Made by a program: the position numbers and the translations under genes. Positions 2,953 through 62,146 of a DNA stretch of 64,000 nt are shown piece after piece. The notes under the pieces were generated by a model. The model saw only the letters and a list, made by a program, of their open reading frames with translations. It had not been told where the DNA came from and made no database searches. Origin of the DNA: a virus (lineage: Duplodnaviria > Heunggongvirae > Uroviricota > Caudoviricetes); IMG/VR virus record IMGVR_UViG_2639762884_000001. The stretch is one strand, 5' to 3'. Position 1 is the first letter of the stretch; the number at the start of each line of letters is the position of its first letter.

Positions 2953-3001
2953 GTATCTAGATAAGTAAGTACTAATTTACTATCATTGTGGCGCTGACAG
3001 G

Positions 3002-3733
3002 ATGTTAGCGCCTACTTATTTCAAGGATGAAACAATGGGAATTAAAGCTGATATTCAGAGCTTATCTCCCTCTGCACTCATTGAGTTGTTCGTACTGGAT
3101 ATGTCGAACACAACTTCAGGGGGGAAGCTATTCTTCCACGCCGGAACAAACGAACTGATGCAACCGGTCGTCTGGCAAGGAGTGACATACGAGCCGTGGC
3201 CAATCAAAGCATCAGGCTTTGACAAAACTGGCCAGGGAACGTTGCCACGTCCAAAAATTCAGGTATCGAACTTTGCCGGAACTGTCTCTGCGGAAGTTCA
3301 GGCAAACGACGATCTTGTTGGCTGCCGCATTATTCGCAAGATGACGCTGGCTCGCTTCCTCGATGCCGTTAATTTTAAAGACGGCAACCCAACAGCAGAT
3401 CCAAACCAACATTTCCCGGATGAAATGTGGTTTATCGAACAGAAAACTCTCGAAACTCATCAGGTTGTCGAGTTTGAATTGTCCAGTGTGTTCGATTTGA
3501 TGGGGGTGCAACTGCCGTATCGTCAGATCATTAAAAACACCTGCCCGTGGAAATACCGAGGGCCAGAATGCGGCTATACCGGTCCATATTTCGACAAAAA
3601 TAACCAGCAGACGTCTATGTCTGGTGCGGATTACTGCACAAAACGTTATGACGCCTGTAATGCGCGTCGGAATTATTTTGCCGACGGTGTGATCCATTTT
3701 GGCGGATTTATTGGAGCTACGCGGTATGGGTAA
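3002..3733 (+). CDS. Minor tail protein, lambda gpL-like
   Basis: 243 aa; C-terminal cysteine cluster (CPWKYRGPECGYTG...YCTKRYDACNARRNYF) as in the gpL Fe-S motif; synteny. Confidence 0.75.
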   Translation: MLAPTYFKDETMGIKADIQSLSPSALIELFVLDMSNTTSGGKLFFHAGTNELMQPVVWQGVTYEPWPIKASGFDKTGQGTLPRPKIQVSNFAGTVSAEVQANDDLVGCRIIRKMTLARFLDAVNFKDGNPTADPNQHFPDEMWFIEQKTLETHQVVEFELSSVFDLMGVQLPYRQIIKNTCPWKYRGPECGYTGPYFDKNNQQTSMSGADYCTKRYDACNARRNYFADGVIHFGGFIGATRYG

Positions 3734-4523
3734 TAAAGCAATCCCTGAGCTTGGCTCTGACGTTATGCAGCAAATCTATCTCTGCGCCATAAATCGCTAC
3801 CCTAATGAAGCGTGTGGCTTTCTGGTTAGAACTAATGGCGACAAATATCGCTTTATGGAAGCGCGGAATGTTTCGGAGAACCCGCAGAACACTTTTGTAA
3901 TGCACGTTGACGACATTATGGCGGCAGAGGATGCGGGTGATGTTATCGCAATCTGGCATTCACATACTGATGAATCAGCAGAAGCATCTGATGCCGATCG
4001 TGCAGGCTGCGAAGCGACGGAAGTTCCGTGGATGATTCTGGCTATTCGCAAGAATGTTGAGGGAGATGCCCCTTTCCATTTTAGCGAGATGAATGTGATC
4101 ACACCTGATGGTTTCGAAATGCCATACCTGGGCAGACCGTATGTATTTGGCGTATTCGATTGCTGGATGTTGTGTCGGGACTATTTGAAGCGTGAGTTTA
4201 ACGTCGAACTAAACCCGAACGCACACCTGCATATTCCATCGTGGTACACCGGCGATAACGACATTCTCGACCAGAACTACCGAAACGAAGGATTGGTACG
4301 GCTTGCGCCCGGAACAGAACCTCAACGTGGGGACATCTTCTTTATCCAATACGGGAAAATGCCCGACCACTGCGCGGTTTATATCGGCGATGGAATGATT
4401 CTTCATCACCAGATCGACCGCCTTAGTTGTCGTGCTTATTACGGCGGAATGTATCAGAAACATACGACGCATCACTTGCGTCACAGAGACTTGCTCAAGG
4501 GAGATGAGACGTGTCTGAGTTAG
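3699..4523 (+). CDS. Tail assembly protein, lambda gpK-like (JAMM/MPN plus NlpC/P60 domains)
   Basis: JAMM-like motif IWHSHTDESAEASDAD; downstream Cys/His pair (FDCWMLC ... HH) typical of NlpC/P60; overlaps L and I ORFs as in lambda. Confidence 0.75.
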   Translation: MADLLELRGMGNKAIPELGSDVMQQIYLCAINRYPNEACGFLVRTNGDKYRFMEARNVSENPQNTFVMHVDDIMAAEDAGDVIAIWHSHTDESAEASDADRAGCEATEVPWMILAIRKNVEGDAPFHFSEMNVITPDGFEMPYLGRPYVFGVFDCWMLCRDYLKREFNVELNPNAHLHIPSWYTGDNDILDQNYRNEGLVRLAPGTEPQRGDIFFIQYGKMPDHCAVYIGDGMILHHQIDRLSCRAYYGGMYQKHTTHHLRHRDLLKGDETCLS

Positions 4524-5104
4524 TTCATGTGCAGCTTGGCGGCCCTATGGCCAAACATTTTGGCCGCCACTGGCATCTAAAGGTGCGCAATACAAAACAG
4601 GCTCTGGATTTAATTGAGGCCAACAAGCCTGGGTTTAAAGCATGGATGAAGCGCAATATCAAAACCTATGACCGTTACCACATCCAGATCACCAATAAAC
4701 AGGGCCACAAGTGGTCTGTTGACGAAAGTGAATATCAGATGATGGGGCAGTCTGACAACATTGCCAAAATCCGCATTACACCTGTTCCGCGAGGAAGCGG
4801 TGGATCTGCTTTTGGGTGGTTTCAGACGGTAGTAGGGGCCGCTTTGTTGGTTGTATCGGCGGTAGTGATGCCTGCTTTAGCACCTCTCGGTTTGTCACTG
4901 ATGATGGGCGGCATATCACAAATCATATCGCCGCAAGCCACTAACGAAAGTGTGAGACAGGCAGATAACTCGAACTCTTATTATTTCGACGGCCCTCAAA
5001 ATACAGAAAACCAGGGCAACCCAGTACAACTTATCTATGGCGAGGAAATTCTGGTTGGCTCACAGGTTGTGAGTTCTTCAATCACGATTGACCAGCTAAT
5101 GTAA
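4511..5104 (+). CDS. Tail assembly protein, lambda gpI-like
   Basis: 197 aa with hydrophobic central segment, in the gpI position between K-like and J-like genes. Confidence 0.6.
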   Translation: MSELVHVQLGGPMAKHFGRHWHLKVRNTKQALDLIEANKPGFKAWMKRNIKTYDRYHIQITNKQGHKWSVDESEYQMMGQSDNIAKIRITPVPRGSGGSAFGWFQTVVGAALLVVSAVVMPALAPLGLSLMMGGISQIISPQATNESVRQADNSNSYYFDGPQNTENQGNPVQLIYGEEILVGSQVVSSSITIDQLM

Positions 5105-5115
5105 ACAAGGATTTT

Positions 5116-60872: not shown

Positions 60873-60940
60873 TTGTAGGTAGTTATCTATCTATGTATAT
60901 TGTGTTAGCGCGTTAAATTCCTGAAACAACTATTCGTTTT

Positions 60941-60967
60941 GGTGGCCTATGGCCACCATTTTTTTAT
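60941..60967 (+). terminator. Rho-independent terminator
   Basis: ggtggcc-tat-ggccacc followed by ATTTTTTTAT. Confidence 0.6.
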
Positions 60968-61015
60968 CTATCTGGCCTTGTTCCCTCAATAAATGTAAAC
61001 TCACGTAATGAATAA

Positions 61016-62146
61016 GTGGTTACTTATCTTTGTGAGGTTTTTGTGTCACTCCTTTTGAATCGTGAGCATACGAACGGTCAGGTAACAAACGCATCGTATG
61101 CAAAAGTTATTGAGACGGTGCTTAAAAGCGGCGTGCAGGCTGATGATCGCACAGGCACTGGTACTTTAAGCACCTGCTACGTTCCCTCTTACTACATGCT
61201 TACTGGTGGGACTGTGCCGCTTATTTCTGGAAAGGCGGTAAATCTTAAGCCACTGCTTGTCGAACTTGAGTGGTATCTGAAAGGCACGGGCAACATCCAA
61301 TTTCTCAAGGATAACGGCGTTAAGATTTGGGATGCATGGGCCGATGAGAATGGCGATTTGGGGCCAGTTTACGGTAAGCAGTGGCGTCGATGGGAAGATA
61401 CCCGCATCGTGAGCCATAGTGAATATCTGAGCAAGATCGCTACTTTCCGTGAACGCGGGTACAAAGTCGAGGGATACCTAGGTATCAGTGAAGATCGCGT
61501 AGTGCTGTCCCGTGAAATCGATCAGCTACAGCGTATTGTCGATACACTGCGCACGAACCCTACCGATCGTCGCATCATGCTTAACGCATGGAACGTAGGC
61601 GAGCTTGAGGATATGAAACTGCCACCTTGCCACTTTGTCTTCTCTTTGTGGAGTCGTGAGCTTGATTTTGAAACCCGTTTAACGATGGCAACTGACATTG
61701 GTCTTCAACACAGTCGCCTCGGTTACGAGTCTATCTACACCAAGATGCTATACGATCTGGAGATGGACGGCAGTGTTACTGAAGCTGAACTGGATGAACT
61801 TGGAATCCCCAAACGCATCCTCAACTCCTGCCTCGTACAGCGTAGCGTAGACACTTTTGTTGGTATGCCATTCAATATTGCTGGCTATGGCATTCTCACT
61901 CATTTTCTCGCGAAGATTACGGGTCACATGGCCGGTGCATTTGTGCATTTTGGCTTTGACGTGCATTTGTACAATAACCACATGGAAAGTGTGCGTGAGC
62001 TAATGCAACGACAGGCTCCAGAGCATTCAGATCCGGTCGTTATATTCCCTAATGAATGGTCTGAGCTGGATGATTTCAAATGGGACGAGATTCTTATTCT
62101 TGGCTATGCCCCTCTACCGTGGATCAAGGTTCCAGTGGCGGTGTGA
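61016..62146 (+). CDS. thyA: Thymidylate synthase (ThyA family) with insertions
   Basis: DRTGTGTLS, WDAWADENGDLGPVYGKQWRRW, NPTDRRIMLNAWNVGELEDMKLPPCH (catalytic Cys), LGMPFNIAGY, HLYNNH; true start probably downstream of 61016; about 50 extra residues after the PCH motif versus the E. coli enzyme. Confidence 0.85.
   Translation: MVTYLCEVFVSLLLNREHTNGQVTNASYAKVIETVLKSGVQADDRTGTGTLSTCYVPSYYMLTGGTVPLISGKAVNLKPLLVELEWYLKGTGNIQFLKDNGVKIWDAWADENGDLGPVYGKQWRRWEDTRIVSHSEYLSKIATFRERGYKVEGYLGISEDRVVLSREIDQLQRIVDTLRTNPTDRRIMLNAWNVGELEDMKLPPCHFVFSLWSRELDFETRLTMATDIGLQHSRLGYESIYTKMLYDLEMDGSVTEAELDELGIPKRILNSCLVQRSVDTFVGMPFNIAGYGILTHFLAKITGHMAGAFVHFGFDVHLYNNHMESVRELMQRQAPEHSDPVVIFPNEWSELDDFKWDEILILGYAPLPWIKVPVAV

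Follow-up and report, generated by a model that had tools for sequence, protein, structure and literature searches.

The 64,000-nucleotide stretch of DNA analysed here (the window; IMG/VR record IMGVR_UViG_2639762884_000001, Caudoviricetes) is by its sequence an Escherichia coli SSU5-like phage-plasmid, in which a palindromic DNA motif recurs in the gaps between genes. The motif is real. It is built as a dyad whose half-sites are phased by 4 bp, it is conserved at orthologous positions in related elements, and it changes between lineages together with a small regulator of the XRE family encoded at 32815-33201. The explanation favoured, with somewhat better than even confidence, is that the dyads are the binding sites of one dimeric repressor encoded by the phage-plasmid, most likely the XRE protein, which would silence the lytic genome in the plasmid state. 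The sequence-only reading of the window had proposed a network of operators bound by one repressor and had named the same gene, with an autoregulatory copy of the motif in its promoter. The comparative evidence and a palindrome over the predicted XRE start favour this proposal.

The region 26000-36000 is 98% identical (megablast) to Escherichia phage Cyrano (pLF82), phage CMS-2020a and many ~110 kb non-mobilizable E. coli plasmids, and ~78% identical to Salmonella phage SSU5. The window corresponds to Cyrano 12.7-75.6 kb and carries a tape-measure gene followed by tail, lysis, partition, replication, recombination and nucleotide-metabolism genes, nearly all on the plus strand, with a non-coding share of 11.6%. 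SSU5-like elements are abundant (~800-1000 matching PLSDB records). Their hosts include E. coli, Klebsiella, Salmonella, Yersinia pestis (pMT1) and Acinetobacter, and some of them carry extended-spectrum beta-lactamase genes such as CTX-M-15. A search of the published work on SSU5, pHCM2 and phage-plasmid repressors, operators and start sites found no account of the present motif, and the literature searched held no paper describing the silencing and induction of SSU5-like phage-plasmids.

A phased dyad in the gaps between genes

The motif was initially described as ATAAGTA/TACTTAT half-sites separated by a free spacer of 2-8 bp. The half-site ATAAGTA is indeed enriched, with 19 copies in the window against 6.2 expected. 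The hexamers TACTTA, TAAGTA, ATAAGT and TAGGTA all fall within the top six for enrichment in non-coding over coding DNA, and 37 of the 70 TARGTA/TACYTA hexamers lie in the non-coding 11.6%. The strict paired form, ATAAGTA-N(0-12)-TACTTAT, matches only once, at 28322, and the arm spacing was therefore tested directly with the degenerate dyad TARGTA-Nx-TACYTA, allowing at most one mismatch and x from 0 to 16, with expectations taken from dinucleotide shuffles. At x = 2 there are 18 matches at 15 loci, where 0.15 are expected; x = 6 gives 11 matches (0.23 expected) and x = 10 gives two, and every other spacing from 0 to 16 gives none or one. The spacer is thus not free, being 2 bp, with additional half-site copies phased by 4 bp (TAAG TAAG TA .. 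TA CTTA CTTA). Sixteen of the 18 matches at x = 2 are intergenic (binomial P = 1e-13).

The core of the site is a 14-bp dyad, TARGTR-NN-YACYTA, typically TAAGTA-NN-TACTTA. When 27 and 26 loci were aligned on the dyad, the flanks proved symmetric, with purines at -1/-2, pyrimidines at +14/+15 and A/T beyond, so that the full site, WWRR-TAAGTA-NN-TACTTA-YYWW, is a palindrome of ~22 bp. Such symmetry suggests a dimer on double-stranded DNA. In the enteric elements 2 or 6 bp separate the tetramers TAAG and CTTA, and the site list of SSU5, as read, shows about as many of one spacing as of the other; exact tetramer matches in the window number three at N2, seven at N6 and two at N10. An expectation-maximization motif search converged on a 4-bp periodic TAnn pattern, corresponding to the phased half-site copies, and has only the value of a hint because of register slippage. 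An alignment of TARGTA-N10-TAnnnT in one orientation, considered as a directional promoter, was dropped, since the best sites fitted just as well when reverse-complemented and their flanks were symmetric.

The window holds 15 solid loci and a few weak ones (Table 1), with possible extra sites at 16936 and 15746; the former is uncertain because it lies within coding DNA. Thirteen of the 15 main sites listed earlier are genuine dyads (2962, 9881, 14102, 19539, 24807, 28323, 35891, 42633, 46157, 48106, 51613, 56297 and 61013), and the two copies then called weaker, at 31185 and 47779, fit with one or two mismatches. Two entries had to be removed: 25677 has the left half-site only, and 19420 is a different palindrome (AAGTAACTT) with a tetramer spacing of 3 bp. 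The latter, AATAAGTAACTTATT at 19423-19431, lies ~130 bp upstream of the minus-strand gene 18222-19295 and differs in its arm spacing. The core copy at the XRE promoter is present, at 33233-33246 rather than 33232-33245. The good site at 60876 and the two possible extra sites were missing from that list.

Table 1. Dyad sites in the window, and the XRE gene with its predicted promoter
Feature	Sequence	Position	Strand	Location	Remarks
Dyad	TAAGTAAGTACTAA	2962-2975		49-bp gap between tail genes M and L	1 mismatch; orthologues at Cyrano 15530, SSU5 15590; followed by GC hairpin containing the L start codon
Dyad	TAGGTAAGTATTTACTTA	9881-9898		Gap between J-like tail gene and tail-fibre gene	0-1 mismatch; Cyrano 22449, SSU5 21938; downstream hairpin covaries
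Dyad	TAGGTAAGTATGTACCTA	14102-14119		Runs into TATAAT, 5' of holin gene (14171)	0 mismatch at 14106
Possible site	TAGGTTTATACCTA	16936-16949		Last codons of gene 16206-16958, 5' of parA	1 mismatch
Dyad	TAAGTAAGTAACTACCTA	19539-19556		Directly 5' of ribosome-binding site of gene 19573-20310	0 mismatch at 19543; Cyrano 31297, SSU5 33605
Dyad	TAAGTAGATACATACTTA	24807-24824		5' of gene 24867	1 mismatch; SSU5 38179
Perfect dyad	GATAAGTATTTACTTACTTATC	28323-28340		3' of gene 28021-28311, before tRNA cluster	0 mismatch, sole strict match; Cyrano 38253, SSU5 41774, Kluyvera L009:24
Weak site	TAGGTAATAACACACCTA	31185-31202		5' of glutaredoxin gene	TARGTA-N6-TACYTA, at most 1 mismatch
XRE-family regulator gene, 128 aa		32815-33201	-		Candidate dyad binder; PHROG_8, Pfam HTH_19, AF2 model
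Palindrome	GGTAAGTGCTTACC	33233-33246		Over predicted transcription start of XRE gene, just 3' of -10	Relaxed pattern, 1 mismatch
Predicted sigma-70 promoter of XRE gene	TTTACA, 16 bp, TAATAT	33248-33275	-		Both hexamers in blocks conserved in four relatives
Dyad	TAAGTAACCACTTA	35891-35904		5' of CobS-like gene	Kept in SSU5, Kluyvera, Y. pestis and Buttiauxella with diverged flanks
Dyad	TAAGTAAGTACTGA	42633-42646		5' of gp32-like SSB gene	SSU5 52176, Klebsiella L014:38748, Buttiauxella L012:14361
Dyad	TAAGTGCTTACTTA	46157-46170		Spacer of complete sigma-70-like promoter TTGAAA-17-TATTAT (46146-46174), right after terminator
Weak site	TAAGTAAACACTAA	47779-47792		5' of gene 47811	1-2 mismatches
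Dyad	TAAGTTAGTATCTACCTA	48106-48123		Ends 2 nt 5' of ATG at 48126	SSU5 58079, Klebsiella L014:43576
Dyad	TAGGTATATACTTACTTA	51613-51630		5' of SbcD-like gene	0 mismatch
Dyad	TAGGTAAGTGCTTATCTA	56297-56314		Gap between RuvC-like gene and nrdA; GC hairpin follows at 56322-56343	Layout matches XRE-promoter copy
Dyad	TAGGTAGTTATCTA	60876-60889		3 nt after MazG-like gene, 50 nt before terminator	Absent from the earlier list
Dyad	TAAGTGGTTACTTA	61013-61026		16 nt 5' of likely thyX GTG start (61043)

Among the gaps of at least 40 bp in the window, 17 of 35 hold a site. The genes downstream of the solid loci are those for tail L, tail fibre, holin, a helicase-operon gene, ligase-region genes, cobS and the gp32-like single-stranded DNA-binding protein (SSB), and further sbcD, nrdA, thyX and the genes that follow recA. 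The site at 56297 has the layout TAGG TAAG TG CTTA TCTA, like the XRE-promoter palindrome. The next start codon may be as near as 2 nt (48126) or more than 110 nt away. In Cyrano, one dyad occupies the 26-bp gap between terL and the portal gene, and another lies between the stop of the capsid gene and its terminator; neither position has space for a promoter followed by a leader. The sites had been placed just upstream of operon starts. Their intergenic location holds, while several lie in tiny intercistronic gaps and many away from operon starts.

The surroundings of some sites have features of their own. The conserved open reading frame (ORF) 48126-48305, of 59 codons, begins with an ATG 2 nt past the dyad (TACCTATCATG) and has no Shine-Dalgarno sequence; its mRNA may be leaderless or have a very short leader, or its start may be occluded upon occupancy of the site. 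GC-rich hairpins begin 2-14 nt past several dyads of the structural region (2990-3012, 9902-9920, 56322-56343 and Cyrano 5465-5490), and their stems covary between Cyrano and SSU5. The hairpin at 2990 encloses the start codon of tail L, and the one after the capsid gene has a T-run and looks like a genuine terminator. Downstream of the site at 60876, by ~50 nt, stands a strong terminator-like hairpin with a T-run (60940-60958), and a minus-strand promoter-like match (60899-60872) overlaps the site. If this dyad marks a promoter, a small RNA of ~60 nt would result.

Conservation and co-variation with the XRE regulator

The same network is present in the related elements. Cyrano has 26 loci over 108 kb, and the first 100 kb of SSU5 contain 26 as well, in orthologous places that extend to the head and terminase genes beyond the window; the loci precede structural, lysis, replication and nucleotide-metabolism genes. 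The same consensus is found at orthologous gaps with differing flanks in Klebsiella phage pJN2-26, Y. pestis pMT1, Kluyvera, Buttiauxella and a Klebsiella plasmid of greater divergence, pFF979_1. A Chitinibacter locus was unusable for comparison, being too short and too distant. SSU5 lacks the whole block from the tRNA genes to a small ORF (orf70), including the integrase-like and XRE genes.

The window has a cluster of four tRNA genes at 29087-29644 (Asn, Tyr, Thr, Ser), of which Asn and Thr share 93% identity with their counterparts in phages P7 and D6. SSU5 retains tRNA-Asn only, and its immunity-region deletion starts directly after this gene. A difference between near-identical elements concerns the RecA/UvsX-like gene (45038-46111), which encodes 357 aa in the window and 780 aa in Cyrano (55065-57404), owing to a 1.26-kb insertion. 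The homologue of Acinetobacter pNY5301-1 is likewise long (2.2 kb). The size difference suggests an intein or homing-endonuclease insertion, present in one element and absent from the other.

The XRE protein matches the PHROG_8 'transcriptional regulator' family (E = 1.3e-11) and, weakly and below the cut-off, Pfam HTH_19 (E = 8e-4). Its AlphaFold (AF2) model, with a pLDDT of 80, consists of a five-helix helix-turn-helix (HTH) domain and an extension. The helices span residues 12-23, 28-34, 41-47, 55-65 and 69-80, with 41-47 as the predicted recognition helix. The closest folds are C.BclI, C.AhdI, HigA, SinR and the DNA-binding domains of the 434 and lambda repressors, with weak E values of ~0.02-0.15; a sequence search for a homologue of solved structure found none. 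The protein has neither a peptidase nor a lambda-CI-like C-terminal domain. In PLSDB, ~865 plasmids carry an XRE homologue and ~810 carry CobS at >=60% identity, so that XRE belongs to essentially all SSU5-like plasmids; an IMG/VR scan with the XRE alignment recovered only close relatives. The gene always adjoins the integrase-like gene and is divergent from a small ORF and the CobT/CobS/PolIII operon. Expression in the lysogen is reported for the Cyrano orthologue, CYRAN_45, and ciprofloxacin induces Cyrano (PMC9928086). At the XRE start, GGTAAGTGCTTACC is invariant in Kluyvera, Y. pestis and Buttiauxella, and its Klebsiella counterpart is the perfect palindrome GGTAAGTACTTACC.

A consensus LexA box (TACTGTTTACTTATACAGTG, 31671-31690) stands 27 nt 5' of the integrase-like gene (31717-32820). 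This gene and the XRE gene converge, with a 6-nt overlap at the 3' end of the latter. The position of the box is kept in Klebsiella pJN2-26, Y. pestis pMT1, Kluyvera, Klebsiella pFF979_1 and Cyrano. The pattern CTGT-N8-ACAG occurs once in the window (31673-31688) and not within the dyad sites; it is a separate element. SOS-driven head-on transcription into the repressor gene could explain how a repressor without a peptidase is induced by ciprofloxacin. A further regulator is encoded in Cyrano outside the window: CYRAN_114 (L003:38781-39302), annotated 'transcriptional regulator', belongs over its full length to the FljA family (Pfam Flag1_repress, E = 1e-80). FljA is the repressor of phase-1 flagellin, and the phage-plasmid may by this gene interfere with flagellin expression of its host.

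More distant relatives retain the architecture of the motif, some of them with another unit. The consensus of the window is shared by Klebsiella pJN2-26, Y. pestis pMT1 and Klebsiella pFF979_1, and Acinetobacter pNY5301-1 has AGTAAG-CG-CTTACT (AGTAAGCGCTTACT); all five are built from the unit TAAG. The unit is TCAG in Acinetobacter CP156934 (AGTCAGTACTGACT), an Aeromonas caviae plasmid (TCAGTAA..TTACTGA) and a Cupriavidus plasmid (GTCAGT-N4-ACTGAC). Exact tetramer counts at the phased spacings split the TAAG from the TCAG lineages cleanly. The CP156934 plasmid has the gene order of the window, and its XRE protein has an overall identity of ~40%, rising to 48% in the aligned core. Within 40 kb it has 13 sites where 1.6 are expected, and five of these are perfect; the control region of the XRE gene contains two, and one stands ahead of CobT. 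Every lineage compared has copies in this control region and ahead of the CobT/CobS/PolIII operon.

The comparison of co-variation covered the XRE protein. The dispersed motif and the XRE-proximal copies change together in five lineages, and the TAAG-to-TCAG switch tracks a residue at the N-terminal edge of the predicted recognition helix. The residue aligned with Asn39 is Asn in all five TAAG elements, and Arg (CP156934), Gln (A. caviae) or Ala (Cupriavidus) in the three TCAG elements. This pattern is not one of simple shared ancestry, because the enteric proteins are, overall, more similar to the CP156934 protein than to that of pNY5301-1. Since plasmids of a single host species, A. baumannii, include both motif types, the binding factor is encoded by the element and not by the host.

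Proposed repression of the lytic genome and its alternatives

The proposed function of the XRE protein is to keep the lytic genome silent in the plasmid (lysogenic) state. At sites in the spacers of sigma-70-type promoters, or running into or following the -10 hexamer, the bound protein would block initiation. At sites which fill tiny gaps in long co-directional gene arrays it would obstruct read-through as a roadblock, in the way of the 'stoperators' known from mycobacteriophage L5, and the copy over the XRE promoter start would provide negative autoregulation. The dyad stands before, over or after the -10, and some sites lie in gaps of 26-49 bp or 2 nt from an ATG. In GC-rich relatives, where the promoter context shows more plainly, the palindrome abuts the -10 (ACTGACTATAAT) or directly follows one (CTATACT-GTCAGTAATAACTGAC). 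Such a variable register and such tight gaps fit steric repression better than activation.

Several observations weigh against this reading. The symmetry axis of the XRE-promoter palindrome is offset by 2 bp from the N2 dyad axis, and in the enteric elements no clear copy is seen at the rightward promoter beside the XRE gene. The co-variation is drawn from about five lineages and a single alignment column. With 4-bp phasing the arms face different sides of the helix, an unexpected arrangement for a rigid dimer. Most enteric sites are without a recognisable -35, which makes their sigma-70 activity once derepressed uncertain. Finally, all sites persist undecayed in SSU5, which is without the XRE gene. 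This retention would be explained if SSU5 is a recent lytic deletion derivative, and it is equally expected of a promoter element.

The alternative that survives best, although it appears rather unlikely, was also named in the sequence-only reading: the dyad would be a phage-specific promoter element which replaces the -35 and is read by a phage activator or a divergent sigma-like factor, driving lytic transcription in the manner of the Lpa-dependent late promoters of P1. It accounts for the missing -35 hexamers, for the TAnnnT overlapping or directly following the right arm (e.g., TACCTATAAT at 14114 and TACCTATCAT at 48118), for the palindromes that abut TATAAT or TATACT in relatives, and for the full conservation of sites in the lytic SSU5. 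The AAGT/ACTT half-site is also common to the -22 box of phage P1, AAGTNACTT. The motif and its flanks are nevertheless symmetric, with no consistent orientation to genes, and there is a 4-bp shift in their register to the -10, the dyad being downstream of the -10 in Cupriavidus and at the XRE promoter. A promoter has no room for a leader at the site 2 nt before the ATG at 48126 or in the terL-portal gap of Cyrano, one site follows the stop of the capsid gene and precedes the terminator of that gene, and a single motif precedes both early-type and late-type genes.

A factor that could read such a promoter was sought as well. A gene annotated as sigma-70 family lies between the CobS-like gene and dnaE in Acinetobacter relatives (L097:15110-15775 in pNY5301-1; L015:14900-15583). 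Its product has a weak Pfam Sigma70_r2 match (E = 0.003), with 27% identity between the two lineages, and the enteric elements have only a 69-aa ORF at this position (37200-37409 in the window). This neighbour of cobS favours the promoter alternative, whereas the protein has no homologue in the window, Cyrano or SSU5 by tblastn, the window and Cyrano have no homologue of the P1 activator Lpa (tblastn best E = 0.46), and the Cyrano annotation lists neither an RNA polymerase nor a sigma factor. An example of a comparable promoter is offered by an unrelated viral contig, IMG/VR 3300030106_001081 (62 kb), where AACCG-ATAAGTAATTACTTAT-CAAAA appears to be the promoter of at least eight genes. At least eight perfect copies (L121:8398-10469, L122:1075-6036) lie tens of bases 5' of ribosome-binding sites, and with its asymmetric conserved flanks the element looks like a phage-specific promoter. 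Two examined stretches of this contig contain no homologues of window proteins.

A less probable alternative, and an unlikely one, retains repression and replaces the binder, which would be either a ParB-like pair (CYRAN_119/120), silencing globally in the manner of KorB, or a lytic regulator of the Cro kind that shuts the XRE promoter as well. Dispersed palindromes of 16-22 bp do resemble the IncP KorB/KorA operators, the ParB-like genes are conserved with a dyad 5' of them (Cyrano 105112, SSU5 99799), and SSU5 retains them along with the sites. It is the XRE residue, however, with which the motif switch correlates, and copies flank the XRE gene in every lineage. The genes reported to be active in the Cyrano lysogen (PMC9928086) do not include those of the ParB-like proteins.

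A role at the RNA level, as a hairpin, processing site or translational operator on polycistronic mRNAs, is very improbable. The intercistronic positions, some abutting start codons, and the GC-rich hairpins after several sites would suit it. Against it, mismatches between the arms are uncompensated, the sequence being kept rather than the pairing, folding downstream of the sites is no stronger than upstream (Wilcoxon P = 1.0), and no site matches an Rfam family, which together make an RNA structure unlikely. Moreover, the implied loop of 2 nt is too small, the distance to the start codon varies widely, and the copy at the XRE promoter is on the opposite strand. Intergenic DNA is AT-rich and TA-rich words are generally enriched there, but an artefact of composition or a host-factor site can be dismissed almost outright, given the excess over dinucleotide shuffles at the phased spacings only, the conservation at orthologous sites across genera, and the two motif versions in plasmids of one host species. 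The host-factor sites compared (Fur, LexA, the NarL 7-2-7 site, the RcsAB box, CpxR, SlyA, MqsA and HipB) fit neither the key positions nor the spacing.

The repressor explanation can be extended into a fuller account, which is offered tentatively and is, taken as a whole, doubtful. The 128-aa XRE protein would silence a 108-kb phage-plasmid via ~26 palindromes, as operators and elongation roadblocks, and the 4-bp-phased TAAG units, with arm spacings of -2/+2/+6 bp, would imply binding by a flexibly linked or multimeric protein, in contrast to classical rigid dimers. The change from Asn to Arg, Gln or Ala would retune the network from TAAG to TCAG and so define immunity groups of SSU5 and AB phage-plasmids carrying CTX-M and other resistance genes. 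Induction would proceed through the LexA-controlled integrase-like gene, transcribed head-on into the repressor gene.

If the dyads are repressor operators, the entire lysogeny regulon of such elements can be read from sequence, and immunity groups become predictable from the motif type (TAAG or TCAG). The switch is then directly testable with one small protein and 22-bp oligonucleotides. It would represent a second, independent 'stoperator' strategy besides that of the mycobacteriophages, and it would supply a set of compact orthogonal repressor-operator pairs.

Relation to known repressor systems

The closest functional analogue is gp71 of mycobacteriophage L5 (Cluster A), which binds more than 20 sites in promoters and short intergenic spaces and blocks both initiation and elongation (PMC9283540). 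As with the L5 operator and its ~24 stoperators, the sites described here are spread genome-wide, mostly in short gaps, over early and late operons, with ~26 loci in each genome, present in all modules. The lytic mycobacteriophage D29, a deletion derivative without the L5-type repressor, has kept its stoperators (PMC5712189), as SSU5 has kept all its dyads without the regulator. The consensus varies between related phages along with the L5-type repressor (PMC9283540, PMC5712189), as it does here with the candidate XRE protein. The differences lie in the binding itself: the L5 sites are asymmetric 13-mers in one orientation, bound by a monomer through two domains, whereas the present sites are symmetric palindromes, and the candidate is a small XRE-type HTH protein without detectable relation to gp71. 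The L5-type 13-mer GGTGGMTGTCAAG has one match in the window, with two mismatches, inside a gene.

Cro/CI-type repressors of the XRE family and the controller C-proteins resemble the candidate in the predicted fold, with its five-helix HTH domain, in the divergent orientation to a lytic operon and in the palindrome at its own promoter. Unlike the Cro/CI-type repressors, the XRE protein has no peptidase or lambda-CI-like C-terminal domain, and ~26 sites take the place of a few clustered operators. In the IncP (RK2) plasmids, the plasmid-encoded repressors KorA and KorB silence most operons through short palindromic operators at many promoters. Those proteins are unrelated to the candidate, their operator sequences differ, and the genes controlled here would be phage lytic genes.

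The sequence-only reading had pointed to the C1 repressor of P1. P1 is likewise a prophage in plasmid form, and C1 controls separate operons through many dispersed operators, of which the P1 record annotates more than 15. The likeness holds as an analogy. C1 has 283 aa, and its operator, ATTGCTCTAATAAATTT, is an asymmetric sequence of 17 bp. A tblastn search gave no homologue of C1 in the window or Cyrano (best E = 2.2), and the operator, allowing up to three mismatches, has no match on either strand of the window. The late genes of P1 are under the separate Lpa system, whereas here one motif precedes early-type and late-type genes. In the Lpa late promoters the -22 inverted repeat AAGTNACTT is followed by 4 bp and the -10, and the present sites are similar in having AAGT/ACTT arms just 5' of a -10-like hexamer and no -35. 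They differ in that the arms are 4 bp (or 0 or 8 bp) apart instead of 1 bp, and in that the register to the -10 varies. An exact copy of AAGTNACTT occurs in the window only at 19423, which is not a dyad site and has no TAnnnT at 4 bp. The dyad network would work in the manner of P1 C1 or L5 gp71, without homology to either.

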